From IMG/VR virus record IMGVR_UViG_3300023184_000047, positions 34,057 through 98,056 of that record: DNA of 64,000 nucleotides. The stretch is one strand, 5' to 3'. This document shows positions 10,083-64,000 of this stretch, piece by piece. This DNA is from a virus. Taxonomy: Duplodnaviria; Heunggongvirae; Uroviricota; Caudoviricetes. The number at the start of each line of letters is the position of its first letter. Within the stretch, counting starts at the first letter, position 1. The notes under the pieces were generated by a model. That model searched no databases, was not told where the DNA came from, and was given only the letters and a program-made list of their open reading frames with translations. The position numbers were made by a program, and so were the translations under genes.

Positions 10083-10091
10083 CTAATAAAT

Positions 10092-28465: not shown

Positions 28466-28484
28466 CAAATAAAAACAATAAGTT

Positions 28485-43280: not shown

Positions 43281-43562
43281 ATGATTACCTTTATTGTTAT
43301 ATTAATCCTCTTAGTAGGTGTATTAGGTTATACTTCCTATAATTTATTTAAAAAAGTAGAGAAACTAGAGAAAATGGTTGATGGTCAAGACCAATATATT
43401 AAACAATTTTCTGATACTGTTGATTTTACTAATAAAAGATTGGGGGAAATTGATGACAAAGGGACATTTCAATCTGATGATGAGATAGGATGGTTTTTTG
43501 AAAGTATAAAAACCCTTCAAAATGAATTAAATGACTTCAACCTTAATGGAATTAGAAAATAA
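43281..43562 (+). CDS. small membrane-anchored protein
   Basis: N-terminal TM helix ITFIVILILLVGVLGY. Confidence 0.4.
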   Translation: MITFIVILILLVGVLGYTSYNLFKKVEKLEKMVDGQDQYIKQFSDTVDFTNKRLGEIDDKGTFQSDDEIGWFFESIKTLQNELNDFNLNGIRK

Positions 43563-44301
43563 AACCCTAGTTATTGAATTAACCAAATCTGGTCAACCTC
43601 GTAAACGTAAACCTAAAACATCCAATACTTACTTTACTGAAGATACTCAGAATGCTATTATAGAATATGTAGCCTCACAGAATCAGGATTTTAGAGATAA
43701 AATATATCGTGAACGGATAGAATATGGGTTTTTTAAATTGACTCAAAATATTATTCATACGTTTAAATTTTATTATACTGATGGTGAATCTGTAGAAGAT
43801 GTACAACAGGAAGTAATTGCTTTTTTACTTGAAAAATTAAAATTATATAAGCCTGAGAAAGGTAAAGCGTATTCGTATTTTGGAACTATAGCTAAACGTT
43901 ATTTAATTCTTAAGAATAAGAAAAATTATCAAAAGCTTCAAGACAAAGGTGATTTGATTGAGGTAGATGAGGATAAAACTATTAGAGAAGAAATCATAAA
44001 TGATTATTACGGTAAAGATTATAGCGTAAGTGAGTTTATGAGTTTGTATATCAAATATGTTGATAAGAATTTGAGTAAATTGTTCCCTAAAGACATTGAT
44101 GCTCAAACAGCAAACGCTATTGTTGAATTGTTTCGTAAGTGTGAGTCGTTAGATATATTTAATAAGAAGGCACTTTACATATATATTCGTGAGATAGTTG
44201 ATGTTGATACACCTCAAATTACTAAAATTATTAAGAAACTAAAAATCACGTACGTTGAATTATATAATCAATATTATTCTAGTGGATATATACGGGTATA
44301 A
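43531..44301 (+). CDS. hypothetical protein, possible sigma-factor-like late transcription regulator
   Basis: Segment QQEVIAFLLEKLKLYKPEKGKAYSYFGTIAKRYLI is weakly reminiscent of sigma region 2. Lies immediately upstream of the structural module. Confidence 0.25.
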   Translation: MTSTLMELENKTLVIELTKSGQPRKRKPKTSNTYFTEDTQNAIIEYVASQNQDFRDKIYRERIEYGFFKLTQNIIHTFKFYYTDGESVEDVQQEVIAFLLEKLKLYKPEKGKAYSYFGTIAKRYLILKNKKNYQKLQDKGDLIEVDEDKTIREEIINDYYGKDYSVSEFMSLYIKYVDKNLSKLFPKDIDAQTANAIVELFRKCESLDIFNKKALYIYIREIVDVDTPQITKIIKKLKITYVELYNQYYSSGYIRV

Positions 44302-47221: not shown

Positions 47222-47596
47222 ATGAAAACAAATGAATTAAAAACCCTTATTAAAGAAGCCGTAAGAGAAGTTCTTAAGGAAGAATTAGCAGAATTAGGTA
47301 AACAAAAAATTAATGAATCCTTATCAATAGGATCTCCTTATCATCAACCTAAATCTAACTCAAATCCTGAGGCTTGGCCTACTATGAACTTTAACTCTAG
47401 TAACATTAATCCGGCTGTTAGTAAAGAAACATTACGACAAACCCTAATGGGTCAAATGGGTATTGAAGCTCCCCCAGCAGCTCCTCCTACAACATTTGCT
47501 GAAAAACAAAGTGTATATTCGGATCTATTGGCGCAAGTAGCAAGCGATATGAGAAATAACCCAGCTGAAATAAATAATTTTAGAAGTATTCAATAA
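47222..47596 (+). CDS. hypothetical structural-module protein
   Basis: ORF. Confidence 0.4.
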   Translation: MKTNELKTLIKEAVREVLKEELAELGKQKINESLSIGSPYHQPKSNSNPEAWPTMNFNSSNINPAVSKETLRQTLMGQMGIEAPPAAPPTTFAEKQSVYSDLLAQVASDMRNNPAEINNFRSIQ

Positions 47597-48006
47597 TGGC
47601 TTATATAAGAAGTAATAGAGTTGATCCGAGAGATTTTCAAATTAATACTGCTATAGGAGTTGCTTTGCCTTTTAATGCTCCTGGGGTTTTTAACAGTGTG
47701 TATTCTACTCAAGATCAAATCAAATACAATCTTATAAATTTAGTATTAACATCTAAAGGGGAAAGAGTTGAAAATCCTAATTTTGGTACAATTTTAAAAC
47801 AACAATTATTTGAACCTATTTCTGAACAAACAATTCCTCTTATTAGAAGTAGTATAACTAATGCTGTTGCTCAATACTTACCTGAAATTGCTATAGATGC
47901 TATTGATATAGTACCTTATGCTGATGAGAATACGTTAGTAGTAACGATAAAATATAGGATTTTACTTTCTGCTCAACCTGATAGTGTAATAATTAACTTA
48001 GTATAA
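47596..48006 (+). CDS. baseplate wedge protein, gp25/GPW-like
   Basis: 136 aa. Motif INLVLTSKGERVENPNFG is characteristic of gp25/GPW lysozyme-like baseplate proteins. Followed by the J-like gene. Confidence 0.55.
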   Translation: MAYIRSNRVDPRDFQINTAIGVALPFNAPGVFNSVYSTQDQIKYNLINLVLTSKGERVENPNFGTILKQQLFEPISEQTIPLIRSSITNAVAQYLPEIAIDAIDIVPYADENTLVVTIKYRILLSAQPDSVIINLV

Positions 48007-49817
48007 TGACTCAAAATAAAAACATATCTTATCTAAATAAGAATTTTCTTCAATATAAAGCATCTCTTATTGAGTTTGCTAAAAATTATTTTCCAAACAC
48101 GTACACTGACTTCTCAGAAGCTTCACCTGGTACGATGTTTATTGAAATGTCTTCATATGTTGGAGATGTTTTGTCATTCTATACAGATACTCAAATACAA
48201 GAAAATTTTGTATTAACGGCTAAGGAAAAAGAAAATTTATTAAATATGGCATATTCTTTAGGATATCGTCCTAAATCGTCATATGCCTCTGTTACTACTG
48301 TTGATTTTTATCAAAGAGTTCCTATATTGAATGGTGCCCCTAATCTAGATTATGCATTAATAATCCCAGAAAATACTCAGTTACAATCTAATTCAACTCA
48401 AACTAACTTTTTAACTATTAAAAAGGTTGATTTTACAGACACTGGTTCTGTAAGTATTAGCTTGTATGATGGTAATAATTACTTATTTAAAAAATCAGTA
48501 CCAGCTATTTCAGCTACTCTACAAAGCACTGATTTTAGTTTTGGGGCCCCAATAAAATTCAACTCAGTTGAAATAAATGATCCTAATTTCCTTCAAATAC
48601 TTCAAGTTACAGGAAGTGATAGTAGTCAGTGGTATGAAGTACCTTATTTAGCTCAATCTAATGTTATAAATAAAACTACCAATACTGGCCCTTCGGCTAA
48701 TCAAGTACCTTATCTTTTAAGTTATTTAGAAACTCCTGATAGGTTTGTATCTAGAATTAGAACAGATGATGTGATAGAATTACAATTTGGTTCTGGTATG
48801 TATGTAAATACACCAGATAATGTAATTATACCTACGCCCGATAATATTCAATTAGGTCTAGTACCATCTGTTGATACTTCTGATTTGGTTAATGACTATA
48901 ATCAAGCAGCTGTATTTTACACAAAACAATATGGTACAGTACCTTCAAATATAACTTTAAATGTTCAATATCTTTCAGGTGGAGGAGTTGGTGCTAATGT
49001 ATCTGCTAATGACATTACTATAATTGCTTCTAATGCTGGTATAAATGCTAGTAACCCAGCATATACTAATGCTTCTTTAGCGACTTTACTGGTGAATAAC
49101 GCGATACCTGCTACAGGTGGTAGAGGTGGCGATACAGTAGAAGAAATACGTTTAAACACGCTAAATGCATTTTCAGCACAATTGAGATCGGTAACTAAAG
49201 ATGATTATATGAATCGTGCTTTAAGTATGCCCTCAGATTTTGGTACCATAGCTAAAGTATATGTTGAACAAGCTACTGCATTATCTGTAAATACAGGTAA
49301 TGATCCTTTGATTGATAATAACCCATTAGCATTATCTATGTATGTGTTAGCCTATAATGATAGTAAAAAATTGGTTAACGCAACTACTGATTTAAAAACC
49401 AATTTAAAAGGGTATTTAGAACCATTTAGAATGGTTACAGATGCTATTATTATTAAGGATGCTTATTACATTAATCTAGGTTTAAGTTTTGATATAACAA
49501 TTATACCAGGATTAAGTAATAATCAAATATTAACAGATTGTATAGCTGCTCTTACTAATTATTTTAATATAGATAAATGGCAGATTAATCAACCTATTAT
49601 ACTTTCTGATGTTAATTCTATTTTATTACAAATAAAAGGGGTACAATCAGTAGTAAAAATTGGGTTTACAAATAAATCAGGAGGTAATTATTCTCCATAT
49701 AGTTATGATGTTGATGGTGCTTTTAGAAGTGGAATTTTATATCCTTCTTTAGACCCGGCGGTATTTGAAATAAGATACCCTGATTTAGATATACAAGGTA
49801 GAGTTGTAACTTTTTAA
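48006..49817 (+). CDS. baseplate J-like / gp6-like protein
   Basis: 603-aa ORF immediately after the gp25-like gene, which is the canonical W-J order. Confidence 0.4.
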   Translation: MTQNKNISYLNKNFLQYKASLIEFAKNYFPNTYTDFSEASPGTMFIEMSSYVGDVLSFYTDTQIQENFVLTAKEKENLLNMAYSLGYRPKSSYASVTTVDFYQRVPILNGAPNLDYALIIPENTQLQSNSTQTNFLTIKKVDFTDTGSVSISLYDGNNYLFKKSVPAISATLQSTDFSFGAPIKFNSVEINDPNFLQILQVTGSDSSQWYEVPYLAQSNVINKTTNTGPSANQVPYLLSYLETPDRFVSRIRTDDVIELQFGSGMYVNTPDNVIIPTPDNIQLGLVPSVDTSDLVNDYNQAAVFYTKQYGTVPSNITLNVQYLSGGGVGANVSANDITIIASNAGINASNPAYTNASLATLLVNNAIPATGGRGGDTVEEIRLNTLNAFSAQLRSVTKDDYMNRALSMPSDFGTIAKVYVEQATALSVNTGNDPLIDNNPLALSMYVLAYNDSKKLVNATTDLKTNLKGYLEPFRMVTDAIIIKDAYYINLGLSFDITIIPGLSNNQILTDCIAALTNYFNIDKWQINQPIILSDVNSILLQIKGVQSVVKIGFTNKSGGNYSPYSYDVDGAFRSGILYPSLDPAVFEIRYPDLDIQGRVVTF

Positions 49818-49850: not shown

Positions 49851-50987
49851 ATGGCCATTTATAAAATCTTTCCCGAAAAGGATACAACTATTTACTCTGA
49901 ATTTCCCGATATCAATACGGGATTAGATTCTATATTAGAGATAAAAAATGTTAATTCTACTTTATCTAGTAATGCTCAAGTAGCTAGAACATTAATTCAA
50001 TTTCCCTCTGATAAGATGTTAGAGGTTTCTGATTTAATTTACAATACAAATACCTTACCTGTTGAGGGGCCTGTGCCTCCTTCATCTATTATTGGGATGT
50101 ATAGTGCTTCTTTAAAGTTATTTTTAGCAGATGCTACTAATCTTCCTGATGATTATACTTTATATTGTTATGCTACTTCACAATCATGGCAAGCAGGTAC
50201 AGGAAAATATTTATATGATCCTGCTTATACACAAGATTGTAATTGGTATAATAGAAATAATAGTGAAGCATGGCCTACTTCTAGTTTCTTTACTGATACT
50301 ACAGCCTCATTTAATTCAGATACCCCTGGAGGTGGTGTTTGGTGGACTACATATTTGGGGTCTCAATCGTTTGTAATAAACACTACTAAAGATACCAATA
50401 TTAATGTTACATATATTGTAGAAACATTTAATACCCCTGGTTTTTTAGAGAATAATGGATTTATATTAAAATTTAATGATCAATATGAATTTAATACTTC
50501 ATCATCTTATTCATTAAAATTCTTTTCTAAAGATACTCACACGATATATCTTCCACAACTTGAATTTGGTTGGGATGATAGTGTATATATTACTGGGTCT
50601 TTAACTGTATTAGATGATCAAAACATAGCGGTTACATTAGGTAATAATGCAGGTTTTTATAGCGTAAACGATGTATGCCAATTCAGAGTAAATGCACGGC
50701 CTATTTATCCTCCAAGACAATTTACTACAGTATCTGTATTTACTTTAAATAGTGCTTTACCTTCATCTTCTTATTATGCTATCCAAGATTTAGACACAGA
50801 AGAATATGTTGTGAATTTTAGTGAAGAACATACCAAAATAAGTTGTGATACCGCAGGGAACTTTTTTACGTTGTATACAGCTGGATTCCAGCCTGAGAGA
50901 TATTACAAAGTATTAATTAAATCTGCATTTAGTAATGGCTCATCTATTATATATGATAACGATTATATTTTTAAAATAAACAAATAA
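49851..50987 (+). CDS. virion structural protein
   Basis: 378-aa ORF in the structural module. Confidence 0.4.
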   Translation: MAIYKIFPEKDTTIYSEFPDINTGLDSILEIKNVNSTLSSNAQVARTLIQFPSDKMLEVSDLIYNTNTLPVEGPVPPSSIIGMYSASLKLFLADATNLPDDYTLYCYATSQSWQAGTGKYLYDPAYTQDCNWYNRNNSEAWPTSSFFTDTTASFNSDTPGGGVWWTTYLGSQSFVINTTKDTNINVTYIVETFNTPGFLENNGFILKFNDQYEFNTSSSYSLKFFSKDTHTIYLPQLEFGWDDSVYITGSLTVLDDQNIAVTLGNNAGFYSVNDVCQFRVNARPIYPPRQFTTVSVFTLNSALPSSSYYAIQDLDTEEYVVNFSEEHTKISCDTAGNFFTLYTAGFQPERYYKVLIKSAFSNGSSIIYDNDYIFKINK

Positions 50988-51337
50988 TGTCAGAAATAAT
51001 TCCTGTTCAAAATTTAATTTATAATAAAGGCACATTTACTAAAGTTATTAATACTCAATTTAGTGAATTAACCTCACCTCCTCCTATCATTCCTGAGACT
51101 ACAGTAGAGGCTTTTTTTGAGTTATATGATGAATTATTTTCTATTATACCTACTGAAGGTGATATAAATTCACATAGAGCTATTTTATTAAGAGAAGCTG
51201 AATATTTGAATGTACAATTATCAGATGATGTAGAGGTACAGGCCTTATTACAAGAAATTACAGATTTAAGACAGCAATTGTTAGAAGCTGAGGTAAATGC
51301 TACTACAGATTTAGCTCAAAATAATTTAAACGTATAA
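50987..51337 (+). CDS. hypothetical structural-module protein
   Basis: ORF. Confidence 0.35.
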   Translation: MSEIIPVQNLIYNKGTFTKVINTQFSELTSPPPIIPETTVEAFFELYDELFSIIPTEGDINSHRAILLREAEYLNVQLSDDVEVQALLQEITDLRQQLLEAEVNATTDLAQNNLNV

Positions 51338-51355
51338 TAAAACAAATAACTGTTA

Positions 51356-54300
51356 ATGACAGATAACATAAAAATAGTAGGACAAGTTCTAGATACAAGC
51401 CGAGTAAATCGTTACGATATACAGGATGAACAATTACTTCTTCCTATTGTACAACAAGAAACATTTGGAAAACTAGAAGACTATGTTGAATATTTTGTAT
51501 TTGATTTAGGCGGAAACGTATTAAATTCAGATTATAACTATACTTCATATAAATTACCTTCAAATTACGGTTATTCCCAAAGTTATCTTCCTACTTTAGA
51601 AATAGATCCTATTCAAGATATTGAAAATTTAGGATACGAATCTGGTGAAGTTACTTCTAGATACAATTTCTTTAGAAAAGTATCTGGAGAACCTTTTAGT
51701 ACTCAACTTTTTATATCTCAAATATCATCAGATAGAACCGAATTAAAAATAGGTTCCACTGAGTTAAATGATATTACTTTGATAGATATTGCTAGTAATT
51801 TTGCTGACAGGCAATTAGCTGTTCCTTATTATTACTATGTTATACTTAATTTTGGTAATAATAATCAAGTAGTAGCTGTTAATATATTAAGTGAAGTAAA
51901 TGCTAATGGGGACGCGAGTTTATTATTGAAACTTTACGAACCACTTCCTGCTAATATTTCTTTAAAAGATACATTTTGGATTGTAGAAGAGATAATTAAT
52001 CCTTATATTTATGACCTTAGTTTAAATAAATTAATTACTCCTTTACCTCAACCATATTTAAAGGGACCTAACTTTGGCATTGATTTAGAGTTTAAAAATG
52101 TAGTACCTACCCAATATAGCAATTTAACTCAATTAGTTACTTCATTTACTGGGTCTTCATACCAAGCTACTTTAAATTCACTTACTAATCAAGAAGTAAA
52201 TATAAATATAGATTACAGTTTACTTAATGATTTTGTTCATTACAGCTCTGCTGAAAATAGGGTGAATAATTTTATCTATAAGATTGGAGAAATTGAAGGA
52301 TACCAATATGAAATAAAAACATTTTCTCCATTAACAGCAAGTAATGCATCTTTAATAAATCAAGTAAATAAAGCAAGTTCAAGTTTAAACGCTACTATTG
52401 CTGGATTTGATGGGTTTGAGTCGTACTTATACTATACTTCTAGTTCATTAACCTCTTCTATAGTACAATATAATTTAGAAACGGGTTCATATTTAGCATA
52501 CAACATTGCACCTTATCCTAAATCTAATAGTACTAAACCATATGTTTTATATACTTCATCATCTACTACTGTTACAAATTGGTATAATGATACTATTGAA
52601 GTAGCTACTGCTTATGATATAGAAAATAAAGACATATTAATTAATACTATACCCTCCTACATAACGGAAGACCCAGATAATTATTTACCATATATTGTAT
52701 TTGTTAATATGATAGGTCAATATTTTGATAATATTTGGGTTTATATTGATAAAATAACAGATGTATGGGATAATAATAATAATATAAACGAAGGTATATC
52801 TCAAGATTTAGTATACGATTGGTTAAGATCATTTGGAATGAAGTTATATAATTCCCAAGGTGATCAAAACGTATTAAACTATAATGTAGGTGGATTTAGT
52901 GGTAGTGTTGATTTTAATGGTAATTATTCACCATCAAGTAGTTTTTTAAATAATATCCCTAGAAAAGAATTAGTACTAGATACTTATAAAAGACTTTATC
53001 ACAATTTACCTTACTTATTTAAAGGAAAAGGTGCTCATGGTGGTTTACAAGGATTAATTACACTATTTGGTATTACGGGTTCAATTCTTCCTATTAAAGA
53101 ATACGGTGGTACAAATGACTACCAAGACTTAACAGGATATTCTTTAGATAAAATATCATTAGGTTCAAATAATCTTACAGGAAGTATATTATCTCCTATA
53201 AAACGATTTGAAACACCTACAACATCATCTAGAGAAGTTAGAAGTCAAGATCTACATTTTATTGATGTATCTTTTTCTCCTCAGACCCAGATTGATAGTG
53301 AAGTATCAGCTTCTATTACAGCTGTAAATCCTAACTGGGTTATTGACAATTATATTGGTTACCCAGAGGCACTTTATTTAGATACATATCCTTCATTATC
53401 TTATCAACGAGATTATTGGTTTGGACAGACATTTACACACCCAAATGCTGGATTTGATTATGGTGGTTTTATTAGATTAATACAATTTTTTGACAATTCA
53501 TTGTTTAAAATGGTTAAAGATTTTACTCCGGCTAGAGGGAATACCTGGACTGGAGTATCTATCAAATCACCAGTATTAGAAAGACCTAAAGTACCTGAGG
53601 CCCGACCTGTATTTACTAACTTTCCTGATTTAGAAGGGGAAGTTACAGGGGCTGCTCTTATCCCAGTATATGATCCTTATTACTTTAAATTAGCAGGAGA
53701 TAGAGAACCTTATTATACAGGTAATATTACTGGTTCATTTATTGATACTTATGCTTATTTTGAAGAAACTAATAGGAACCCATATTTAGTAAATAATACA
53801 GTTGGGTATGTACCACCAGGATTTGTTAGTGGCAATACTGATTTTATTTTAGATTATACTGCACCAGCATATGAAAATTTCTTTGTTAATTCTGATTTTA
53901 ATGCATTACAAAATAATGAATTTGTAAGTTTAACTTCTCAATATAGAAAGAAATTGGTTCCTATATTATCCACAGATTCTTTAGGAAGAGTGTTTACATC
54001 ATATTCAACAACAGCATCGGTTCAACTTCAAGATTCATACTTAAGTGATACAGCATATGTTAATTCAAGATATAATGGTGTTCAACTTTATGGAAGATTT
54101 ATTAATACTTGGGTAACTGGAGATAATTCATATGGACAAACCCCAGTAATTAATCTTAATACTAAAAAAATTGCGTTATTTACAGAAGTAGTAAAAAGTA
54201 TATTACCTTACAAGTCAGATGTTAAACTAAAATATCTAGTTGATGGGTCAGGTAGTTTTACCGAATTGAATCAAAGAAATAGAAATTGGCATGAAGTACA

Positions 54301-55978
54301 AAATACTTTTAAAGCAGGATTATTTTCAAATATCTCATTATTTAACTCACAACAATATTCAAATCAGGCTCCAACAAATGGTAATAAAGTTATATATGAA
54401 AGCGGATATTCTTATTTCCCTACTTTCTATTCTTTTGGTTCTGAATCAATGAATTGGACTAGCGAGTCATTATTTAATTTAATAGCTGGGGGGAATGCTG
54501 CTCTTATAGATAGATTTTTTACTGTATATCCATCAGGAGGATTTTTAATCCCAGGTGGGACAAACTCTACAACACAATATGTTTCTTCAAGTTACTTAGG
54601 AACAGGAAAGAAACATGAAGTATGGAATATGTTTAATTTAACAGGTTCTAATACCAACTATGGTTTATTTTTTAGTACGGGATCAAGTCCAGGAAATGGT
54701 AATATTTTAACTTCTTCATATTACACTTTATCAGCTGAGGGGAATTACAATATAACGTACAATTTTACTATACGAACAGAAGGAGTATTAGATTCCCAAT
54801 TTACAGCTAGTATGCAAATGTGGAAAAGTAGCTCAGCAGGTATAAGTAGTTTTGATACTAATACTCAAACAGCTTTAATGCGAAATAATTATTATAATGG
54901 ATATTTAATTAACTTTGCTGAGGCCGTAGTTTATTCGCGCCTTCCTAATCAAGATAAGACTCTTAATGTTAGTTATACATTATACACTTACGATGGAGTT
55001 AATAATTCCGTACCTATAAGCTCACAAGTTATAACAACTACAACTAATGTGTATAGAGCTTATCGAGTAACAATACCTGCACTTTCTCAGGGTGCTAATA
55101 ATCCTGATTTTGGAAATGAGGGAAATAATGGAGTTGTACCTGGTGGGGTTACACAAATTAATCCAGATCAAGATGTAGTTCTAGGTACAGTATGGGTAAG
55201 ATCTCCATTAAACCCGAATCTTGCTACTACTCTTAAATACGAACTTATATCTCCTCCATATTCTGGTCCACAACCAGTAGATTTAACATTTAATAGGAAC
55301 TTTGTGATAAATGTTGATAATGCAGACTATTCAATAAATGATAAAATAGGATTTAGATTATTTATAGAATCTAATGCTGGTATAGTAACATCGTCTGTTT
55401 TAACAACTAATGATAGTATATTACAAGCTATTCCTTCTAATAACTCTTTATTAGTTACTACATCGTCAATATGTGTAGATCAAGCAGCTAATTCATTTTA
55501 TTTATCTACACAATTATCTCCATTTTTTAGTAATAATTATATATTTAATCCTTTAGATACAGTAATATCTTCATCATATGCTGATTTGTACTTAGAATAT
55601 GGTAACATTCAATACCCATTTGCTATACAAGAAAATGATAAAATTATTGTTCAAGTAGTAGATGAAAACGGTCCATTTTTAGAATATACTGTTAATAATG
55701 TTATTTATGCGGGTAACGGAAGTGTTTATATAAGCACTAAAGAAGATATTAGTGGTTATTTTGGAGATCTTTGTAATAAGTATTATAAAATTGTTTTTTT
55801 AAAACGTGTAAATGATGAAACTAATTTAATAGTAAATCTAGTTAAACCTGCTGGGAAAACATCTTATGGGTTTACTATACCTGAAAATATAGCTTCAAGT
55901 GTTTTAAATAATATAGATGCTATAACATATAATACTAAACAACAATTAATAGATGCAGGAATTACTTTAACCCAATAA
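51356..55978 (+). CDS. large (1540 aa) tail fibre or baseplate protein
   Basis: Single uninterrupted ORF, Asn/Ser/Thr/Tyr rich, typical of fibre or baseplate wedge proteins. Confidence 0.5.
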   Translation: MTDNIKIVGQVLDTSRVNRYDIQDEQLLLPIVQQETFGKLEDYVEYFVFDLGGNVLNSDYNYTSYKLPSNYGYSQSYLPTLEIDPIQDIENLGYESGEVTSRYNFFRKVSGEPFSTQLFISQISSDRTELKIGSTELNDITLIDIASNFADRQLAVPYYYYVILNFGNNNQVVAVNILSEVNANGDASLLLKLYEPLPANISLKDTFWIVEEIINPYIYDLSLNKLITPLPQPYLKGPNFGIDLEFKNVVPTQYSNLTQLVTSFTGSSYQATLNSLTNQEVNINIDYSLLNDFVHYSSAENRVNNFIYKIGEIEGYQYEIKTFSPLTASNASLINQVNKASSSLNATIAGFDGFESYLYYTSSSLTSSIVQYNLETGSYLAYNIAPYPKSNSTKPYVLYTSSSTTVTNWYNDTIEVATAYDIENKDILINTIPSYITEDPDNYLPYIVFVNMIGQYFDNIWVYIDKITDVWDNNNNINEGISQDLVYDWLRSFGMKLYNSQGDQNVLNYNVGGFSGSVDFNGNYSPSSSFLNNIPRKELVLDTYKRLYHNLPYLFKGKGAHGGLQGLITLFGITGSILPIKEYGGTNDYQDLTGYSLDKISLGSNNLTGSILSPIKRFETPTTSSREVRSQDLHFIDVSFSPQTQIDSEVSASITAVNPNWVIDNYIGYPEALYLDTYPSLSYQRDYWFGQTFTHPNAGFDYGGFIRLIQFFDNSLFKMVKDFTPARGNTWTGVSIKSPVLERPKVPEARPVFTNFPDLEGEVTGAALIPVYDPYYFKLAGDREPYYTGNITGSFIDTYAYFEETNRNPYLVNNTVGYVPPGFVSGNTDFILDYTAPAYENFFVNSDFNALQNNEFVSLTSQYRKKLVPILSTDSLGRVFTSYSTTASVQLQDSYLSDTAYVNSRYNGVQLYGRFINTWVTGDNSYGQTPVINLNTKKIALFTEVVKSILPYKSDVKLKYLVDGSGSFTELNQRNRNWHEVQNTFKAGLFSNISLFNSQQYSNQAPTNGNKVIYESGYSYFPTFYSFGSESMNWTSESLFNLIAGGNAALIDRFFTVYPSGGFLIPGGTNSTTQYVSSSYLGTGKKHEVWNMFNLTGSNTNYGLFFSTGSSPGNGNILTSSYYTLSAEGNYNITYNFTIRTEGVLDSQFTASMQMWKSSSAGISSFDTNTQTALMRNNYYNGYLINFAEAVVYSRLPNQDKTLNVSYTLYTYDGVNNSVPISSQVITTTTNVYRAYRVTIPALSQGANNPDFGNEGNNGVVPGGVTQINPDQDVVLGTVWVRSPLNPNLATTLKYELISPPYSGPQPVDLTFNRNFVINVDNADYSINDKIGFRLFIESNAGIVTSSVLTTNDSILQAIPSNNSLLVTTSSICVDQAANSFYLSTQLSPFFSNNYIFNPLDTVISSSYADLYLEYGNIQYPFAIQENDKIIVQVVDENGPFLEYTVNNVIYAGNGSVYISTKEDISGYFGDLCNKYYKIVFLKRVNDETNLIVNLVKPAGKTSYGFTIPENIASSVLNNIDAITYNTKQQLIDAGITLTQ

Positions 55979-56024
55979 AAAACATAAAATACAAATATTT
56001 ATAAACAAAATAATTAATTAATAA

Positions 56025-56687
56025 ATGGCTATATTAAATAACAATACTGTAACAATTGATGCAGTTTTAACAGCTAAAGGTAGAGAATTACTAGCTAGAA
56101 ACGATGGTTCGTTCAGAATTACACAATTTTCTTTGGCAGACGACGAAGTAGATTATACATTATATAATCCAGCGCAGCCATCCGGTTCTGCATTTTATGG
56201 ACAAGCAATTGAAGCTATGCCTGTAATGGAAGCATTTCCAGATGATACGCAAATTATGATTTATAAATTAGTAACACTACCTAGAGGTACAGCTAAATTA
56301 CCTGTAATTAATGTTGGATACAACAGTATTTCATTAACACAAGGATCTACTTTAACAATTACTCCTCAAACATTAAATTATTTAGGAGCTACTAGTACAT
56401 TTGAAGCTAATGGATATGCTGTTACTATTGCTGATGTTAGATATTTATCTACATTCTCATCAACGGGTGTTCCTGGTTCCGAGACTACTCCAACAGGTGT
56501 TACCTCAACAGTAGGTTCACAATTAAGCCAAACTATTATTGGTACTTCGTTTACATTAACTGGTACTACTATTAATACATTATTTGGTTCTAATGCAAAT
56601 CAGATTACAACTACTTTAACAGTGTTAGGTAGAGATTCAGGAGCTAGAATAACTATTCCATTAACAATTACAAAATCAAATTCATAA
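56025..56687 (+). CDS. virion structural protein
   Basis: ORF. Confidence 0.4.
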   Translation: MAILNNNTVTIDAVLTAKGRELLARNDGSFRITQFSLADDEVDYTLYNPAQPSGSAFYGQAIEAMPVMEAFPDDTQIMIYKLVTLPRGTAKLPVINVGYNSISLTQGSTLTITPQTLNYLGATSTFEANGYAVTIADVRYLSTFSSTGVPGSETTPTGVTSTVGSQLSQTIIGTSFTLTGTTINTLFGSNANQITTTLTVLGRDSGARITIPLTITKSNS

Positions 56688-56693
56688 TAATAT

Positions 56694-57716
56694 ATGTCAT
56701 TCGTAAGATATAATCCCGACGATTCAGTAGTAAGTACAGAAACAGTAGTAAGACCAATGTGGAGTGGCGACACTAATACCTTAACTACTTTTTATACTTC
56801 TAGTGTAATTACTAGTTCATTCTATATAAACGTATATGCTAACTACCCAGGAGCATTAAATGTTACTACAGAATCAGTTCAAATGGCCATTCAATATGGA
56901 AACAAATATGGTAGCGGTTCAGCATATATCAATTCAGCTGTAACTACTGTATTACCTGATGGTTCATCTTTAACTCCTTCTAGAGTTGTTTATGGGCAAT
57001 ACAGAACATTATTATTAGGGACTGAAAGTGGGAGTTTTAGTTTTGGGAATGATAATCCAAATGGTGTTTATATTATAAATGTTGCTAGAAATAGGTATAA
57101 AGAACATCTTCAACCTGGTTCTATGACATTAAAACTAAAAAATGGTGCCGCTGAAGTTGTTTTAACAGATAATAGTCAAATCACTTCTACTACTAATTAT
57201 ACAACAGCTGGTACTTTATATTATACTTTAATTTCAGGTAGTGCAGGGGCTGCTGCTACCGCTGCTGTTTCTGCCTCTATTTATGGTTATATGTACCCAG
57301 ATAGTGATATCATTATCTTAAATCCTACAGCTTTAAGTAAATCAGTATCTGAGGGGGGGATAGCATTTGCACCAGCTGTAAGTGCTCCAGGTACAAATAA
57401 CAATATACAACAAGGTTTTTATCAAATAATGTCAGCTAGTGCTAATTTTTCTCTACAATCAGCTGAGAATGTATCTGCTCATTATTTCTTTACAAGAGTA
57501 AAAAATCAAGATTTTAATTATACTACTAATCCTTCTATTATAGATGCTAATGGTAATTTAATTTATACTACACTAATTAATAATCCTCAAACATTTATTA
57601 CTACTGTTGGTTTATATAATGATAATAATGAATTATTAGCCGTAGCTAAATTAAGTAGACCTCTAGTGAAAGACTTTACTAAAGAAGCCCTTATAAAAGT
57701 AAAATTAGACTATTAA
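56694..57716 (+). CDS. virion structural protein with conserved C-terminal TTVGLYNDNNELLAVAKL domain
   Basis: C-terminal about 45 aa are paralogous to the C-terminus of 62029..62376. Confidence 0.4.
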   Translation: MSFVRYNPDDSVVSTETVVRPMWSGDTNTLTTFYTSSVITSSFYINVYANYPGALNVTTESVQMAIQYGNKYGSGSAYINSAVTTVLPDGSSLTPSRVVYGQYRTLLLGTESGSFSFGNDNPNGVYIINVARNRYKEHLQPGSMTLKLKNGAAEVVLTDNSQITSTTNYTTAGTLYYTLISGSAGAAATAAVSASIYGYMYPDSDIIILNPTALSKSVSEGGIAFAPAVSAPGTNNNIQQGFYQIMSASANFSLQSAENVSAHYFFTRVKNQDFNYTTNPSIIDANGNLIYTTLINNPQTFITTVGLYNDNNELLAVAKLSRPLVKDFTKEALIKVKLDY

Positions 57717-57737
57717 TCTAAATAATAATGTTACTAC

Positions 57738-58973
57738 ATGGGATCATTCAAACAGTTAAAATCATCGGATGTTATAACAGTACCTATTATTGCCAATAAA
57801 ACTTGGAATTTTAACTATTGCCCTCTTCCCTATGATGATCCTTATATCTCAGTATATAATGGAACAAATTATACTAATTCTTTTAACCCGGGGAATGAGC
57901 CTATAACTAATACACATTATGATAGGCTTACTTATAGACAAATTAACCAATTATTTTATCATAGATACTCAGGAAGTTTAAATACAGCATCTTTAGCTTC
58001 TTCTATCCATTATTTATCGGCTAGTAGTCAACATCCGTCTGCTTCGTTTTTTAACTTTAATAATGACCCTGCTTTTATTTCATATTTTCCTACAGGAGCT
58101 AATGAAACTATTAGAGTAATTCAAATATCTCCTAATGCATATGGTAATAAGGTTTTACCGTATTCATTTCAAATGTCGTCATCAAATTATAATTTTTACG
58201 ATGATGGTAAAGGAAATGTTTATGATAATTTATATTATCCCTCACCTATCCATGTTGGAAATATATTTTATTCTGAAGGTACAGTTGTAATTACAAATCA
58301 AGAATACCAGAATGCTTTTGTTTTACCGGCGGTTGCTTATGATGATGTTTATGATATAGTAAGAAGTGACTACCCAAATCCAGCTACATTCTCATTCTAC
58401 CCATTAACAAATGATGATTTAAGAGGAAATACATTAGTAAATAATTCAATTCAAATATTTGGGGGTAATGTTAGTTTTTTTAAAACAGGTTCAAACAACT
58501 CAGTATCATTATCTTTTTCAGGTTTAGGTGTAGGAACATATCAAACATTTTATTCATTTTTTACTACAGGCTCTTATTGTGCTCCTTTAATGAGTGGTAC
58601 GGGTAGTATTACTGTTAATGTAACGGACCCAGAATGTGAATTTGAAATTGGGATTTACATTCCACCTCCATATCCACCATCATTATCTGTTACACCATCA
58701 TTAACACCAACCAATACGGTTACACCAACAAAAACACCAACTCCATCACCAACTAGAACGGTTACGCCAAGTGTAACGCCAAGTAGAACACCAACAAAAA
58801 CACCAACACCAAGTGTAACTCCATCGTTTTCACCAACTAGAACAGTTACACCGAGTATAACACCGAGTATAACACCGTCTATTACTCCAAGTACTATGAA
58901 TTCAAAACAGTTTCAAAATGAAGATTACTTTGAGTTCCAAAATGGAGATTTTTATCAATTTCAATTTCAATAA
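57738..58973 (+). CDS. fibre-like protein with Pro/Thr-rich linker
   Basis: Linker TPTKTPTPSPTRTVTPSVTPSRTPTKTPTPSVTPSFSPTRTVTPSITPSITPSITPS near the C-terminus. Confidence 0.4.
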   Translation: MGSFKQLKSSDVITVPIIANKTWNFNYCPLPYDDPYISVYNGTNYTNSFNPGNEPITNTHYDRLTYRQINQLFYHRYSGSLNTASLASSIHYLSASSQHPSASFFNFNNDPAFISYFPTGANETIRVIQISPNAYGNKVLPYSFQMSSSNYNFYDDGKGNVYDNLYYPSPIHVGNIFYSEGTVVITNQEYQNAFVLPAVAYDDVYDIVRSDYPNPATFSFYPLTNDDLRGNTLVNNSIQIFGGNVSFFKTGSNNSVSLSFSGLGVGTYQTFYSFFTTGSYCAPLMSGTGSITVNVTDPECEFEIGIYIPPPYPPSLSVTPSLTPTNTVTPTKTPTPSPTRTVTPSVTPSRTPTKTPTPSVTPSFSPTRTVTPSITPSITPSITPSTMNSKQFQNEDYFEFQNGDFYQFQFQ

Positions 58974-58984
58974 ATTAAAATAAA

Positions 58985-60913
58985 ATGAACGCTAAATTAA
59001 CAAGTATTTCAAGTAGCTTTCCATATAGTGGAAGTTTAATACATATAGTAAATCCTAATAACACCGCACAAGATCCGTCAGGTTCATCTTTTAAAACATC
59101 TTTATTGTTAGTAGAAAATTCTTTTCTAACAGCAAGTAGTAATACTGAGGTTATTTTTAATAGTGGTAGTAGATTTAAAAGTACAGGATCATTTACTTTT
59201 AATTATCAAAATCAAAGTTTACTGCAAGGACTTGCAGTTACAGCAAGCGGATTATATTCACACGCTCAAGGATTTAATACAATAGCATCAGGAAACTATT
59301 CACATACTGAAGGATGGCTAACAACAGCATCAGGTTCTTATTCACATGCTGAAGGACGCCAAACAGTAGCATCAGGATTTGCTTCACATGCTGAAGGATT
59401 AAGCACAATAGCATCAGGATCTTATTCACATGCAGAAGGATATAATACTTTAGCAAGAGGATCTTATTCACATGCTGAAGGTTCCGAAACTGTAGTAATT
59501 GGTACTTTTTCACATGCAGAAGGAAGTGGTTCAATATCATCAGGACTTGCTTCACATGCTGAAGGATTTGGAACAAATGCACTAGGAGCTTATTCACATG
59601 CTGAAGGGTCTAACACAATAGCATCAGGATCTTATTCCCATGCTGAAGGATACTTTGCAACAGCATCAGGATCATATTCACACGCAGAAGGATTATTCTC
59701 AACTGCATCAGGTGATTATTCACATGCAGAAGGAGCTAGTACACAAGCAATAGGAGTAGCTTCACATGCAGAAGGTGGAGCAACAGTAGCATCCGGAGAA
59801 GGATCACATGCAGAAGGAGATACTACAACAGCAACAGGAAACTACTCACATGCAGAAGGAATAACCACACTAGCATCAGGAGAATCTTCACATGCCGAAG
59901 GAGATACAGCAGTTGCATCAGGATACGGTTCACATGCTGAAGGAGTTAATACAACAGCAACAGGATATGCTTCACATGCAGAAGGATACTATACATTAGC
60001 ATCAGGATATGCTTCACATGCTGAAGGATCTGAAACTATAGCATCAGGAATATACTCACATGCAGAAGGATACGCCTTTCAAGGTAGTGAAACCGATCAA
60101 TTTACAAAGGCAACAGGATATGGAGCACATGCTGAAGGTCAAGGTACTTGGGCAAAAGGAGCTGGATCACACGCAGAGGGTACTTCTACAGATAATGGAA
60201 TAGATACAGACTATGTACTAATAGCATCAGGTTCTTATTCACATGCTGAAGGAGCAAGTACAATATCTGAAGGAATATTTTCACATGCTGAAGGATTCCT
60301 TACAAGAACAATAGGTATTGCTTCACATGCAGAAGGATACACTACTATAGCATCCGGAACTTATTCACATGCAGAAGGAGATGGAACTACAGCATCAGGA
60401 TATGCTTCACATGCTGAAGGAATACGAGTAAGAGCATTAGGATCAGGTTCACATGCTGAAGGATCTGGTGCAATAGCATCAGGAAACTTTTCACATGCTG
60501 AAGGTTCCGAAACTACAGCAATTGGTACTTATTCACATACTGAAGGATATGGTACATTAGCATCAGGACTTGCTTCACATGCTGAAGGATTTAATACAGT
60601 AGCATCCGGCTCATATCAACACGTACAAGGTCAATACAACATATCATCATCAGCACAATCTGCTTTTATAGTAGGTAACGGTACAGGAAATGGTAGTAGA
60701 TCAAATTTAATCTTTGCATCAGGTTCTCAAGTACAGATAACAGGTTCGTTAATGGTAAATGATATATTAACACTTACTCCAAGAACAACCACACCAGCAG
60801 GAGCAACAACCGGTAGTATAATAATGTCAGGAAGCTCAGGAGCAAATATAAACCTATATGTTTATACAGGAGCAGGAGCAGCTAATGGATGGGCAAAAAT
60901 AACAGCAGTATAA
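58985..60913 (+). CDS. fibre or adhesin-like protein with about 32 tandem 13-residue YSHAEG repeats
   Basis: Residues about 95-540 are 13-14-aa units of the form x-A-S-G-x-Y/A-S-H-A-E-G-x-x-T (39-nt DNA period). Resembles beta-helix or hep_Hag/YadA-head-like repeats. Confidence 0.5.
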   Translation: MNAKLTSISSSFPYSGSLIHIVNPNNTAQDPSGSSFKTSLLLVENSFLTASSNTEVIFNSGSRFKSTGSFTFNYQNQSLLQGLAVTASGLYSHAQGFNTIASGNYSHTEGWLTTASGSYSHAEGRQTVASGFASHAEGLSTIASGSYSHAEGYNTLARGSYSHAEGSETVVIGTFSHAEGSGSISSGLASHAEGFGTNALGAYSHAEGSNTIASGSYSHAEGYFATASGSYSHAEGLFSTASGDYSHAEGASTQAIGVASHAEGGATVASGEGSHAEGDTTTATGNYSHAEGITTLASGESSHAEGDTAVASGYGSHAEGVNTTATGYASHAEGYYTLASGYASHAEGSETIASGIYSHAEGYAFQGSETDQFTKATGYGAHAEGQGTWAKGAGSHAEGTSTDNGIDTDYVLIASGSYSHAEGASTISEGIFSHAEGFLTRTIGIASHAEGYTTIASGTYSHAEGDGTTASGYASHAEGIRVRALGSGSHAEGSGAIASGNFSHAEGSETTAIGTYSHTEGYGTLASGLASHAEGFNTVASGSYQHVQGQYNISSSAQSAFIVGNGTGNGSRSNLIFASGSQVQITGSLMVNDILTLTPRTTTPAGATTGSIIMSGSSGANINLYVYTGAGAANGWAKITAV

Positions 60914-60929
60914 AAGTAAATTAAACAAT

Positions 60930-61250
60930 ATGACAACAACTTGGCAAATTATTGATTTAAAAAGTCAAATAGCAGACGGATTAGTTACTAAAATAACATA
61001 CAAATGTAAAGTTAAATTAGAAAATGATAGTAATCAAACAATAGGAGAAATAACTGTAACAGGAGATCCAACATTACCAAATTTTATACCTTTTTCTGAT
61101 TTAACAGAAGAAACAGTTATAGAATGGGTGAAATCATCTTTAGGAGAAGAGCAAGTAACAACTATTGAAACTAAACTACAAAACAGAGTATCTGCTCGTA
61201 AAGCAGCAAGAGAAGCTGAAACAGAACAAAACGGTCTTCCTTGGATCTAA
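60930..61250 (+). CDS. hypothetical structural-module protein
   Basis: ORF. Confidence 0.4.
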   Translation: MTTTWQIIDLKSQIADGLVTKITYKCKVKLENDSNQTIGEITVTGDPTLPNFIPFSDLTEETVIEWVKSSLGEEQVTTIETKLQNRVSARKAAREAETEQNGLPWI

Positions 61251-61275
61251 TAAACAAAGTAATTAAAAATAAAAT

Positions 61276-62013
61276 ATGCCAACATACGTAGTATTATACA
61301 CTCAAGGAAATTCCAATGGCCCCTTTGATATTTATCTCTCAGGAAGTTCTGGTTTAACATTATATGCTTCTAACATACCTAAATATGAATTAGTTAATGG
61401 ATATGTAGTGACATTTTCTGATGGGATACCTTCATCATCTATAGATGTATTTGATGTAGCTTATGGTTGCTTTACTGATCAAAATGTCCCATTTCCTTCA
61501 GTATCACCATCTATTACTCCTTCAATTTCTATAACTCCAACAAGAACACCATCAATAACTGTATCGCCTTCTAGAACACCATCAGTAACAAGAACACCAT
61601 CCGTTACTCCTAGTGTAACCCCACCACCTTCAATAACACCAACATCTACTCCGAGTGTAACACCATCTAAATCTATTGGAACTTCATTAACTCCAACTCC
61701 AACACCAACTATATCTTTAACACCATCACCTAGTCCTATACCTGTTTATAGCAATTTTGGAATAACAGAGGGACAATCATCCGCTTATTTAGCTTGTTAT
61801 GAATTTAATCAAAACGGATTTAGTGGGGGTGAATGTTATACTACAAGTCCTCCTGCCATTGGAGTAACAGTATTTAACAGTGGTTATGTACCAATAACAG
61901 GAGGTAATTATTGGCATGCTATTGGAAATTGGGCAAGTAATTCTCCTACTGCCTATCGAATTAACGATAGTGGAGTAATAACAGATACTGCTTATCCTCT
62001 TTGTATTTTATAA
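61276..62013 (+). CDS. fibre-associated protein with Pro/Thr/Ser-rich linker
   Basis: Central SVSPSITPSISITPTRTPSITVSPSRTPSVTRTPSVTPSVTPPPSITPTSTPSVTPS linker, paralogous to that in 57738..58973. Confidence 0.4.
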   Translation: MPTYVVLYTQGNSNGPFDIYLSGSSGLTLYASNIPKYELVNGYVVTFSDGIPSSSIDVFDVAYGCFTDQNVPFPSVSPSITPSISITPTRTPSITVSPSRTPSVTRTPSVTPSVTPPPSITPTSTPSVTPSKSIGTSLTPTPTPTISLTPSPSPIPVYSNFGITEGQSSAYLACYEFNQNGFSGGECYTTSPPAIGVTVFNSGYVPITGGNYWHAIGNWASNSPTAYRINDSGVITDTAYPLCIL

Positions 62014-62028
62014 AAAAATTTATTTAAC

Positions 62029-62376
62029 ATGCCATTTTCACCACCACCAAGTTTTAATATAACCTTTCAGAACGAAGTAACTATTTATCAACAAAATGTG
62101 ATTTGTCATGTTAAGGATAATGAATTTAATCTTTCATACAATCCAACATTGTTAAAAAACAACTTACAATCAGGAAGTAATTTTATGTCTCAATCATTAA
62201 ATACTCCTTTACCTCAAGTTAAAGATTTTGCAACAGCATCATATTTTGAACCTTATGTTACAACTATAGGTTTATACAATGAAGATAATACCCTATTAGC
62301 AGTAGCTAAATTAGGACAACCATTACCACTATCACAAAATACAGACATGACGTTTGTAATTAGATACGATAAATAA
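62029..62376 (+). CDS. small structural protein sharing the C-terminal TTIGLYNEDNTLLAVAKL domain
   Basis: See 56694..57716. Confidence 0.4.
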   Translation: MPFSPPPSFNITFQNEVTIYQQNVICHVKDNEFNLSYNPTLLKNNLQSGSNFMSQSLNTPLPQVKDFATASYFEPYVTTIGLYNEDNTLLAVAKLGQPLPLSQNTDMTFVIRYDK

Positions 62377-62390
62377 AAAAATAAATTGTT

Positions 62391-62819
62391 ATGAATAAAT
62401 GGATATGCGGGGAAGAATTTAACCCCGAAGACTACACAGGTTTTGTTTACAAAATTACAAACCTTACAAATGGAAAATTCTATATTGGGAAGAAATCATT
62501 CTTCCATAATACTAATGTTAAATTAGGTAAAAAAGAATTAGCCGCACTACCCACAGCTCGTGGTAAAAAACCCTCAACCAAATTAGTTATTAAAGAAAGT
62601 AACTGGGAAGAATATTGGGGTTCAAATAAAGAATTACTACAAGACGTTAAAGAATTGGGACCAGAACACTTTGAATGCCTTATCTTACGTTTATGTAAAA
62701 CTAAAAAACAACTTACCTACTTTGAAGTACATTACCAATGTACCAGCGATTGCTTATTAGGCGCTAATTCATACAATGACAATATATTAGCCAAGTTCTT
62801 CCGTCGAGATTTTACTTAA
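62391..62819 (+). CDS. GIY-YIG family endonuclease
   Basis: GFVYKITNLTNGKFYIGKK is the canonical GIY-(10-11)-YIG motif. 142 aa. Confidence 0.5.
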   Translation: MNKWICGEEFNPEDYTGFVYKITNLTNGKFYIGKKSFFHNTNVKLGKKELAALPTARGKKPSTKLVIKESNWEEYWGSNKELLQDVKELGPEHFECLILRLCKTKKQLTYFEVHYQCTSDCLLGANSYNDNILAKFFRRDFT

Positions 62820-62883
62820 TATCGCTTGGATCCCTCAGAGATTTTTATTAACTTAACCCTACAGGTTTGATAAAAAAGTAAAA

Positions 62884-63843
62884 ATGGAGATAAAAGAAGA
62901 GGGAATAAGGGAGAAAATGTTACTAACGTTGATAGAATCGGTATTAGGAAAGGGGCGGTCTACTGCTCGTAACAACGCCGCATTTAACTGTCCGTTTTGC
63001 CACCATTCTAAACCGAAGCTAGAACTACAAATACGCACTAATGATAAAAAGGAAAACCCTTGGCATTGTTGGTCGTGTGATGAAAAGGGTAAAACCGTGT
63101 CTTCATTGTTTAAAAAATTAAAGGCACCACAACATAAAATTCAAGACCTATATTCATTAATTAAACCGGGTACTAAACAAGAAACGGTTGTTAATGCACT
63201 CTCTTTACCTAAGGAATTTATTCCTCTTTCTTGCGCTAGTCAAATAGATAACATTTCGGCTATTGAAGCAAAACACGCAATTAAATTTTTAAAGCAACGT
63301 GGTATCACGGAGAATGATATTTTAAAATATAACATTGGGTTTTGCGCTAACGGCAATTTTGCCCATCGTGTTGTAGTTCCCTCTTATGATGAACATGGAA
63401 ACCTAAATTATTTTAGCACTCGAACATATCGTAAAGATGAACCACAAAAATATAAAAATCCACCTGCTGGGAGGAATATTATAGGTTGGGAATATTATAT
63501 AAATTGGAATGTTCCACTTATTTTAGTTGAAGGTATATTTGACGCTTTAACTATTAAACGTAATGTAATTCCTTTATTTGGTAAATCAATCTCAGAAGAA
63601 CTAATGAAAAAGATTGTTGGTTCTCAAGTGCAAAAGGTATATATTGCCCTAGATAATGATGCTTTAAAAGACGCAATTAAACATTGTGAAAAATTATTGT
63701 CATATGGTAAAGAAGTATACTTAGTAGAATTGGACGGCAAGGACGCTAATGAAATCGGTTTCACCCATTTCTTAGACATACTTGAACAAACCCAGCCTCT
63801 TACATTCTCGACATTAATCAGTAAAAAAATAGAATTAATATGA
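62884..63843 (+). CDS. DNA primase (Zn-ribbon plus Toprim)
   Basis: N-terminal CPFCHHSKPKLEL...WHCWSCDEKG Cys4 zinc ribbon. ILVEGIFDALTI is a Toprim glutamate motif. D-x-D at ALDNDA. Confidence 0.6.
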   Translation: MEIKEEGIREKMLLTLIESVLGKGRSTARNNAAFNCPFCHHSKPKLELQIRTNDKKENPWHCWSCDEKGKTVSSLFKKLKAPQHKIQDLYSLIKPGTKQETVVNALSLPKEFIPLSCASQIDNISAIEAKHAIKFLKQRGITENDILKYNIGFCANGNFAHRVVVPSYDEHGNLNYFSTRTYRKDEPQKYKNPPAGRNIIGWEYYINWNVPLILVEGIFDALTIKRNVIPLFGKSISEELMKKIVGSQVQKVYIALDNDALKDAIKHCEKLLSYGKEVYLVELDGKDANEIGFTHFLDILEQTQPLTFSTLISKKIELI

Positions 63844-64000
63844 TAGACAAAAATGCAAATGTTATCAAGGATCCTAAGATCAAACGTATTGTAGAATACA
63901 GTGCTGATAACAAACAAATTAACGTTTTAGATCAGCGTTTTTACAGACGTGATGGAAAATACTACCCTTCTGTATCCAGCATCCTTAATTACTTTCCTAA
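63840..64000 (+). CDS. hypothetical protein, N-terminal fragment (runs off window)
   Basis: ATG overlaps the primase stop (TATGA). MIDKNANVIKDPKIKRIVEYSADNKQINVLDQRFYRRDGKYYPSVSSILNYFP... Confidence 0.35.
   Translation, partial: MIDKNANVIKDPKIKRIVEYSADNKQINVLDQRFYRRDGKYYPSVSSILNYFP

Follow-up and report, generated by a model that had tools for sequence, protein, structure and literature searches.

The fibre gene and its repeat array

We analysed a window of 64,000 nucleotides from an uncultured tailed virus (IMG/VR record IMGVR_UViG_3300023184_000047, positions 34,057 to 98,056) and focused on a putative tail fibre gene located at 58985..60913 on the plus strand. The gene was identified from the list of open reading frames (ORFs) and by its match to the Pfam family YadA_head. 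It encodes a protein of 642 amino acids, with the stop codon at 60911..60913. The sense frame is open over all 642 codons, and the other five frames contain between 24 and 83 stops.

The protein can be divided into three parts, all given here in plus-strand coordinates. The N-terminal domain covers residues 1-86 (58985..59242); approximately the first 47 residues presumably attach the protein to the virion, and residues 48-86 form what we call a start cap, as residues 48-88 resemble the segments that precede the arrays within homologs with several arrays. The repeat array, predicted to be a left-handed parallel beta-roll, covers residues 87-553 (59243..60643). The C-terminal part, residues 554-642 (60644..60910), contains the end cap followed by a short tail and has no match in Pfam. 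The motif of the end cap starts already inside the last unit of the array, YQHVQGQYNISSSAQSAFIVGNGT..RSN, and the tail behind it reads L.L.PRTTTP...G.II.SGS.....LY.Y.G..W. Cap and tail are shared with gp169 of the Flavobacterium phage Immutovirus, with two other loci of our comparison (L002 and L039) and with many metagenomic homologs.

Splitting the protein at each H-[A/T/V]-[E/Q]-G motif gives 32 units, all in one register, between residues 87 and 553. The spacing of the motifs is exactly 14 amino acids in 29 of 31 cases, and Tandem Repeats Finder recovers the array over 59255..60609 with periods of 42, 84 and 126 nucleotides (scores 469-525), i.e. the period is 14 amino acids or 42 nucleotides. 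A preliminary description of this DNA had counted about 32 repeats, which is right, but had given a period of 13 residues or 39 nucleotides; its motif, A-S-G-x-(Y/A)-S-H-A-E-G-x-x-T, omits a variable 14th residue. The consensus of the unit is A-S-G-x-[Y/A/G]-S-H-A-E-G-x-x-T-x. The unit has eight conserved and six variable positions: G3, H7 and G10 are present in all 32 units, S6 and E9 in 30, A8 in 29 and A1 in 28.

Thirty of the units are exactly 14 residues long. The exceptions are unit 20 (residues 353-375, 60041..60109), which has 23 residues due to a nine-residue loop insertion (..HAEGYAFQGSETDQFTK), and unit 22 (residues 390-413, 60152..60223), which has 24 residues due to a ten-residue loop insertion (..HAEGTSTDNGIDTDYVLI). 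These two units take the place of the occasional variants of 14-15 residues reported before. The array is also slightly longer than described, about 1.40 kb and not 1.3 kb, and its units are far from near-identical: the mean pairwise identity is 57% for amino acids and 67% for nucleotides, with a maximum of 88% for nucleotides, and the longest exact DNA repeat within the array is 32 nucleotides. The array is acidic, with an isoelectric point of 5.0.

A second ORF of 107 amino acids, 59274..59597 on the minus strand, lies wholly within the array. Its translation is also periodic with 14 amino acids (..LQHV[K/N]K.LMLL..), and over the whole gene its frame is hit by 26 stops. It owes its existence solely to one antisense frame of the repeat unit that is free of stop codons, and is an artefact of the repeat, as had been suggested.

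Fold and family assignment

The Pfam family YadA_head (PF05658) matches the protein in five stretches with 67.4 bits, against a cut-off of 25, and an E-value of 1.2e-18. No other family was found when the whole protein was scanned against Pfam at E<=0.1. The layer periodicity of 14 residues, with both glycines present in 32 of 32 units, is that of the YadA-like beta-roll, and the only PDB matches found by sequence are heads of trimeric autotransporters (BpaC 7o23, BoaA 3s6l, YadA 1p9h and CbpF). The earlier assignment to the YadA-head/Hep_Hag type is therefore confirmed.

We modelled the protein with AlphaFold2 as a single chain, using 41 homologs. The mean predicted local distance difference test score (pLDDT) is 85, and it is above 97 across the array, with dips at the insertions of unit 20 (about 72) and unit 22 (about 55). 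According to the model, each unit contains one strand of five residues (HAEGx) and one of two to three residues, in a strictly periodic pattern. Thus, the array is predicted to fold as a regular beta-roll with two short strands per layer, and the disordered low-complexity sequence that had been named as the alternative to a solenoid is not what the model gives. When the model was compared with PDB using Foldseek, the best match was again BpaC (7o23, E-value 2.3e-13), followed by CbpF, BoaA, UspA1, AtaA, EibD and YadA; for BoaA (3s6l_A) the root mean square deviation is 2.1 A over 124 columns. No phage structure was among the PDB matches. Among the predicted viral structures in BFVD, Foldseek found phage and giant-virus proteins that are already named "YadA-like".

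The preliminary description had suggested a check for a trimeric beta-helix. The trimeric part of this suggestion agrees with the closest solved folds, which are trimeric YadA-like heads, but the helix is not an intertwined one: each chain forms its own left-handed parallel beta-roll, and three such rolls would stand side by side. We infer the trimeric state from the homologs, since in these such arrays occur within a single polypeptide together with modules that are specific for trimers, i.e. collagen repeats, Peptidase_S74 and Peptidase_G2.

Genomic context and the exchangeable slot

The genes of the region are all on the plus strand and are separated by 11-25 nucleotides. Upstream of the fibre gene, on the same strand, we found a gp25-like gene (47596..48006) and a gene for a gp6-like baseplate wedge protein (48006..49817), i.e. 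the fibre gene is encoded in the tail/baseplate module. Homologs of the fibre carry annotations as tail fibre or tail spike. Both the position and the annotations agree with the earlier description of the gene product as a phage fibre.

The closest cultured relative is Immutovirus (160 kb). From the proteins of 220 and 340 amino acids through to the primase, the proteins of Immutovirus are 45-65% identical to those in the window and follow in the same order. The source of the DNA is an uncultured myophage related to Immutovirus, and the fibre gene is located at the end of its baseplate/fibre module.

For comparison, we used 36 related IMG/VR contigs, selected because they contain the neighbouring 220-residue protein at 63-96% identity. 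In the 29 closest (86-96% in this protein) a common frame is kept as far as each contig reaches: proteins of 220, 340 and 411 amino acids on one side and proteins of 245, 115 and 142 amino acids and the primase on the other. The slot between the homologs of the 411- and 245-residue proteins differs from contig to contig. It is empty in some, in others it is taken by long C-terminal extensions of the 411-residue protein beyond its Pro/Thr linker, and in further contigs it contains separate genes for 947 to 2350 amino acids. A YSHAEG gene is present in only one of the 36 contigs, L002, with a DUF7936 gene again behind it.

The gene directly upstream of the fibre gene (57738..58973, plus strand) encodes the protein of 411 amino acids, which consists of a conserved N-terminal part, a Pro/Thr-rich linker (about 58702..58893) and a short aromatic and acidic tail. 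Its homologs in the relatives have 301-924 amino acids and differ in the C-terminal domains past the linker. Among the 12 related loci in which the slot was read, the tail (..FEFQ.G.FYQFQ) is shared only with L002, and the protein is a possible adaptor for the fibre. Directly downstream (60930..61250, plus strand) lies a gene for 106 amino acids assigned to DUF7936/phrog_7802 (Pfam E-value 6.6e-21). A DUF7936 gene directly follows the SHAEG fibre genes here, in L002 and in L039 (1216..1539); in L041 (5661..5978) and L042 (6001..6246) it lies 3' of unrelated long fibre-like genes, of 1246 and 1476 amino acids. The DUF7936 protein may be a factor for fibre assembly or another accessory factor.

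Both genes that flank the fibre cassette (57738..58973 and 61276..62013) carry Pro/Thr-rich linkers with PT[PS]xTP.. repeats; in the upstream gene, Tandem Repeats Finder detects them at 58702..58893. Unrelated domains replace the region past the linker in the relatives, and the linker length varies, the upstream protein having 411 amino acids here and 609 in L002 (11717..13546). These linkers look like module boundaries for the swapping of C-terminal domains. The gene for the 245-residue protein is duplicated in L002.

A megablast of 50000..64000 against the GenBank phages returned no match, and the exact fibre protein was not found in the assembly index. A scan for promoters and terminators gave fewer sites than in shuffled sequence, so that no transcription unit could be defined. 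A scan of bacterial genomes matched Bacillota and other metagenome-assembled genomes, none of them from Flavobacteriia, and gave no clue to the host.

The family and comparison with known systems

The homolog search returned at least 7997 proteins at E<=1e-5. Many homologs among the matches listed carry the chaperone domains Peptidase_S74 or Peptidase_G2. The best 120 of these at least 7997 homologs have one to five arrays each, with a median total of 27 units, and the longest single array has 31 units. With 32 units the array studied here is at the top of the range of the family and not different in kind. In homologs with several arrays the end cap (QHVQGQYN..FI.GNGT..RSN) recurs behind every array, and the segment before the array recurs too; the module therefore consists of a start cap, an array and an end cap.

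The SHAEG-type unit is very common and is found in phages, giant viruses and surface proteins of Bacillota. No solved structure of such a unit turned up. A literature search on "SHAEG" found no paper on the motif, only an author name, and searches on Hep_Hag or YadA in phages, and on Immutovirus or Flavobacterium phage, found passing mentions only. Mizuno et al. 2014 (PMC3909814) noted marine phage tail fibres with YadA-like and S74 domains. The fibre belongs to an already known kind, as YadA-like heads are annotated in many proteins of phages and giant viruses.

BpaC is the best match of the fibre both by sequence and by fold. The C-terminal head of BpaC (PDB 7O23; PMC9543794) has, like the fibre, layers of 14 residues built from two pseudo-symmetric [S/T]-x-A-x-G halves, and BpaC-like heads share the full conservation of the glycines. 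The array is long and acidic in both (32 layers in the fibre and 42 in BpaC), and in both whole layers are inserted or deleted, 10 layers between BpaC and BoaC and 11 between the fibre and its ortholog in L002. The changes between BpaC and BoaC have been proposed to adjust both length and binding surface, and the rise of the beta-roll in the BpaC structure is 4.8 A per layer (PMC9543794). Unlike BpaC, the fibre has no signal peptide, coiled-coil stalk, neck or membrane anchor, and it is found in a structural context of a phage. In every layer of the fibre, one strand contains an invariant His-Ala-Glu; the autotransporter heads have Val/Ile/Thr at these positions if the strand is the core one, and small residues that vary if it is the outer one. 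The array of the fibre, unlike those heads, ends in its own cap (QHVQGQYN...GNGT..RSN).

Among the phage proteins, Immutovirus gp169 (QQO92087.1, annotated as "tail spike protein") contains SHAEG units, the end cap and the C-terminal tail, takes the same position in the syntenic fibre module, and is 55% identical to residues 380-629 of the fibre. It differs in its size of 1053 amino acids and in a long unrelated N-terminal shaft, with 11 units at its end, whereas the fibre consists of a single module with 32 units behind another, short N-terminal domain. The tail fibre protein of the Verrucomicrobia phage P8625 is 51% identical to the fibre and shares the SHAEG units, the cap and the tail. Many metagenomic homologs differ from the fibre in that they contain between two and five arrays and end in a chaperone domain, Peptidase_S74 or Peptidase_G2.

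Chromosomal proteins of Bacillota (Paenibacillus lycopersici, Metabacillus rhizosphaerae) contain SHAEG units and the same cap, the last units together with the cap being 50-61% identical to the fibre. They differ from the fibre in that they are encoded by cellular genes, beside genes for a glycosyltransferase, a sulfotransferase and a transporter and with no prophage context, and in that they carry the autoproteolytic chaperone domain Peptidase_G2 (PF11962). Because of these chromosomal relatives, the repeat module is not specific to phage fibres. The two loci are 2843..6046 of L053 (M. rhizosphaerae) and 2555..5836 of L060 (P. lycopersici), both with SHAEG arrays and Peptidase_G2, and L060 also has collagen repeats. 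The Bacillota proteins may be fibres of the cell surface or of spores. The metagenomic homolog P0015 is also found beside sulfotransferase and glycosyltransferase genes.

Number of units and evolution of the array

The ortholog in L002 has 506 amino acids and 21 units, and both insertion-bearing units are kept. Given that these landmarks are kept, the difference to the fibre consists of whole units, nine fewer before and two fewer after. The homologous gp169 of Immutovirus has 11 units. Between L002 and the fibre the N-terminal domain is 86% identical and the C-terminal domain 83%, and within the aligned units identity is 93% at the eight conserved positions and 35% at the six variable ones. 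The allele with 21 units is identical at the DNA level in two metagenome records of the Joint Genome Institute (JGI). Searches of IMG/VR and the JGI metagenomes with the N-terminal domain found one other allele only, in three records of the same DNA; therefore the number of repeats can be compared in very few relatives.

Several conserved positions of the unit have fixed synonymous codons. A1 is encoded by GCA in 28 of 28 units, although GCA accounts for 25% of the alanines in the neighbouring genes, and S6 by TCA in 29 of 30 units, compared with 31% in the neighbouring genes. The codons of A8 are mixed (16 GCT and 12 GCA), and for G3 and G10 GGA is used in 25 of 32 units. The comparison of codons covers L001, L002, L038, L039 and P0015. 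The same position-specific codons are found in the Immutovirus group, and the distant homolog P0015 fixes others, i.e. GCT, TCT, GGT and AGT. Such position-specific synonymous codons point to units that descend from, or are homogenised to, one another. Optimal codon usage as the sole cause was rejected, as the same amino acid has different codons at different positions: in the fibre gene, A1 and A8 differ as given above, and in P0015, S2 is TCT but S6 is AGT. The phage encodes tRNAs for Ala, Ser, Gly, Thr and Glu with U34 anticodons, to which the fixed codons ending in A correspond; this may be a coincidence.

We also considered recent duplication within the array and rejected it. The best pair of units is 88% identical and not adjacent, and identity does not depend on the distance between units. 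With no pair above 88% and no dependence on distance, the turnover of units appears to be old and slow. The preliminary description had expected the array to vary in length and to be prone to slippage or recombination. The variation is there, as the whole-unit differences between 32, 21 and 11 units among the relatives show, but it is best explained by slow evolutionary turnover and not by a slippage-prone contingency locus, since the units have only 67% DNA identity, nothing points to a recent tandem duplication, and the allele with 21 units is identical in two metagenomes.

The invariant His/Glu pair

The fibre is ordinary apart from the invariant His/Glu pair in every turn. The T, A, S and A residues of the two [S/T]-x-A-x-G halves are 74-82% conserved across the family. 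These conserved residues must face the inside of the roll, and therefore His and Glu face outward on one sheet and x-A-S faces outward on the other. In the usual autotransporter head the core of the trimer is formed by Val/Ile. Here we tentatively propose a His-Glu core, a possibility that we rate as somewhat short of probable. The SHAEG units would then be a large subclass of the YadA-like beta-roll, with His and Glu at the trimer core (H@5 and E@7 in BpaC numbering) forming a His-Glu ladder, possibly with metal ions near the three-fold axis. The ladder would consist of 32 layers of three His and three Glu, buried, and would hold the rod together.

Four observations favour the core positions for the pair. 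The glycine that follows Glu is the most conserved, 99% compared with 81% for the other glycine (in 3401 family units anchored only on the His periodicity), as is G@8, the glycine after core position 7, which is completely conserved in the autotransporter heads (PMC9543794). On the other strand the sequence is A-S-G, similar to the outer strand of BoaA/BpaC. The x-A-S face carries 10-18% charged residues across the family, and its identity between the two orthologs is only 33-38%, compared with 83-86% for their end domains. The His/Glu pair is also invariant in phages assigned to Flavobacterium and Verrucomicrobia hosts, in records of Lachnospiraceae and crAss-like phages, and in the chromosomes of Bacillota; invariance across such different settings argues against a receptor-binding role of the pair.

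The register obtained from HMMER places HAEG on the outer strand of BoaA/BpaC, and by our estimate a shift by seven residues scores about the same. Polar or ion-binding trimer cores are known from the water channels of BpaC (PMC9543794), from the stalks of autotransporters and from the tail needle of phage P22. No description of a His/Glu core in a beta-roll was found in the literature searched.

Function of the fibre

We consider it highly probable that the gene product is a structural myophage fibre, and most likely a trimeric receptor-binding tail fibre. The short N-terminal domain would serve as the anchor on the baseplate or on an adaptor. The 32 turns of 14 residues would build up a stiff left-handed parallel beta-roll like that of YadA-like heads, in which the small residues T, A, S and A fill the interior and the two glycines form the corners. 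In the trimer, three such rolls would lie next to each other and give a rod with a length of about 15 nm (32 x 4.8 A), closed by the conserved cap and the short C-terminal tail. The six variable positions of each turn, together with the conserved loops of turns 20 and 22, would provide the surface that recognises the host, and the gain and loss of whole units over evolutionary time would tune both length and surface. The fibre gene lies in that part of the fibre module whose content is swapped between related phages.

It is unlikely, but conceivable, that the protein is a structural fibre of the virion that does not bind the receptor, i.e. a whisker, a collar or head fibre, or a strut that keeps other fibres apart or stabilises them, with the array only as a rigid spacer of adjustable length. 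The receptor binders could then be the products of the two flanking genes (57738..58973 and 61276..62013), which have Pro/Thr linkers and C-terminal domains that vary, and the absence of the fibre gene from 35 of 36 related contigs means that it is dispensable in this group of phages. However, the variable positions of the repeat diverge much faster than the end domains (35% compared with 83-86% identity), and the gene sits in the exchangeable slot of the fibre module. A fast-diverging surface and an exchangeable slot are the usual marks of host-recognition proteins.

As the repeat type is that of autotransporter heads, with partial NCBIfam matches to BimA, EmaA, Ata and YadA, the gene might instead encode a phage-borne, autotransporter-like trimeric adhesin that the bacterial host exposes on its surface as a conversion or virulence factor. 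This is very improbable. Neither the YadA_anchor beta-barrel (PF03895) nor a stalk family was found by Pfam in the whole protein at E<=0.1, the NCBIfam adhesins score 22.7-51 bits against cut-offs of 600-3000 (51 against 600, 22.7 against 750), the N-terminus (MNAKLTSISSSFPYSGS...) has by inspection no hydrophobic stretch resembling a signal peptide, and the AlphaFold2 model contains no helices of four or more residues. The gene is also located within a tightly packed block of late structural genes. That the DNA is a tandem repeat with an antisense ORF that is open too could suggest a disordered low-complexity repeat, or a non-coding repeat read as an ORF by chance. The open frame of 642 codons, the thousands of protein homologs and the regular solenoid predicted with high confidence refute this, and it can be dismissed with near certainty.

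Some points weigh against the protein being a trimeric receptor-binding tail fibre. Presence in the virion and receptor binding are putative, and the annotations of the homologs are predictions. The AlphaFold2 model is that of a monomer, and its confidence is low for residues 1-68 and for the C-terminal domain. The C-terminal chaperone domains found by Pfam in many homologs (Peptidase_S74, PF13884, and Peptidase_G2, PF11962) are absent here, and the relatives in Bacillota are located beside glycosyltransferase and sulfotransferase genes and not beside phage genes.

Other features of the window

The G+C content of the window is about 30%. A cluster of 22 tRNA genes on the plus strand (6249..10083), covering most amino acids, accounts for a local rise to 39-44%. 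At 28396..28466 ARAGORN lists one more tRNA, a doubtful one whose anticodon has two bases.

Just upstream of the structural block, a protein of 256 amino acids (43531..44301) matches Sigma-70 region 2 with an E-value of 7.5e-06 and 26.1 bits, against a cut-off of 24, and may be a late sigma factor of the phage. The protein of 115 amino acids (62029..62376) is homologous to the C-terminal 100 residues, approximately, of the protein of 340 amino acids (56694..57716), with the shared pattern ..TT[VI]GLYN..N.LLAVAKL..P..., and this pairing recurs in Immutovirus and related contigs. Between the fibre module and the primase, the ORF of 142 amino acids (62391..62819) is 39% identical to an Immutovirus protein of 146 amino acids annotated as "NAD synthetase"; this annotation looks doubtful for so small a protein.

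Implications

The analysis settles the annotation of the gene as that of a tail-fibre component, encoded in the exchangeable slot for host range in an uncultured phage related to Immutovirus. With 32, 21 and 11 units and position-specific codons, the array is a clean example of a fibre whose length evolves by the gain and loss of whole layers. If the proposal of a His/Glu trimer core is true, it would be a novel construction principle for beta-roll rods, one that may depend on pH or metal. The fibre gene is a natural target for work on host range in phages related to Immutovirus.

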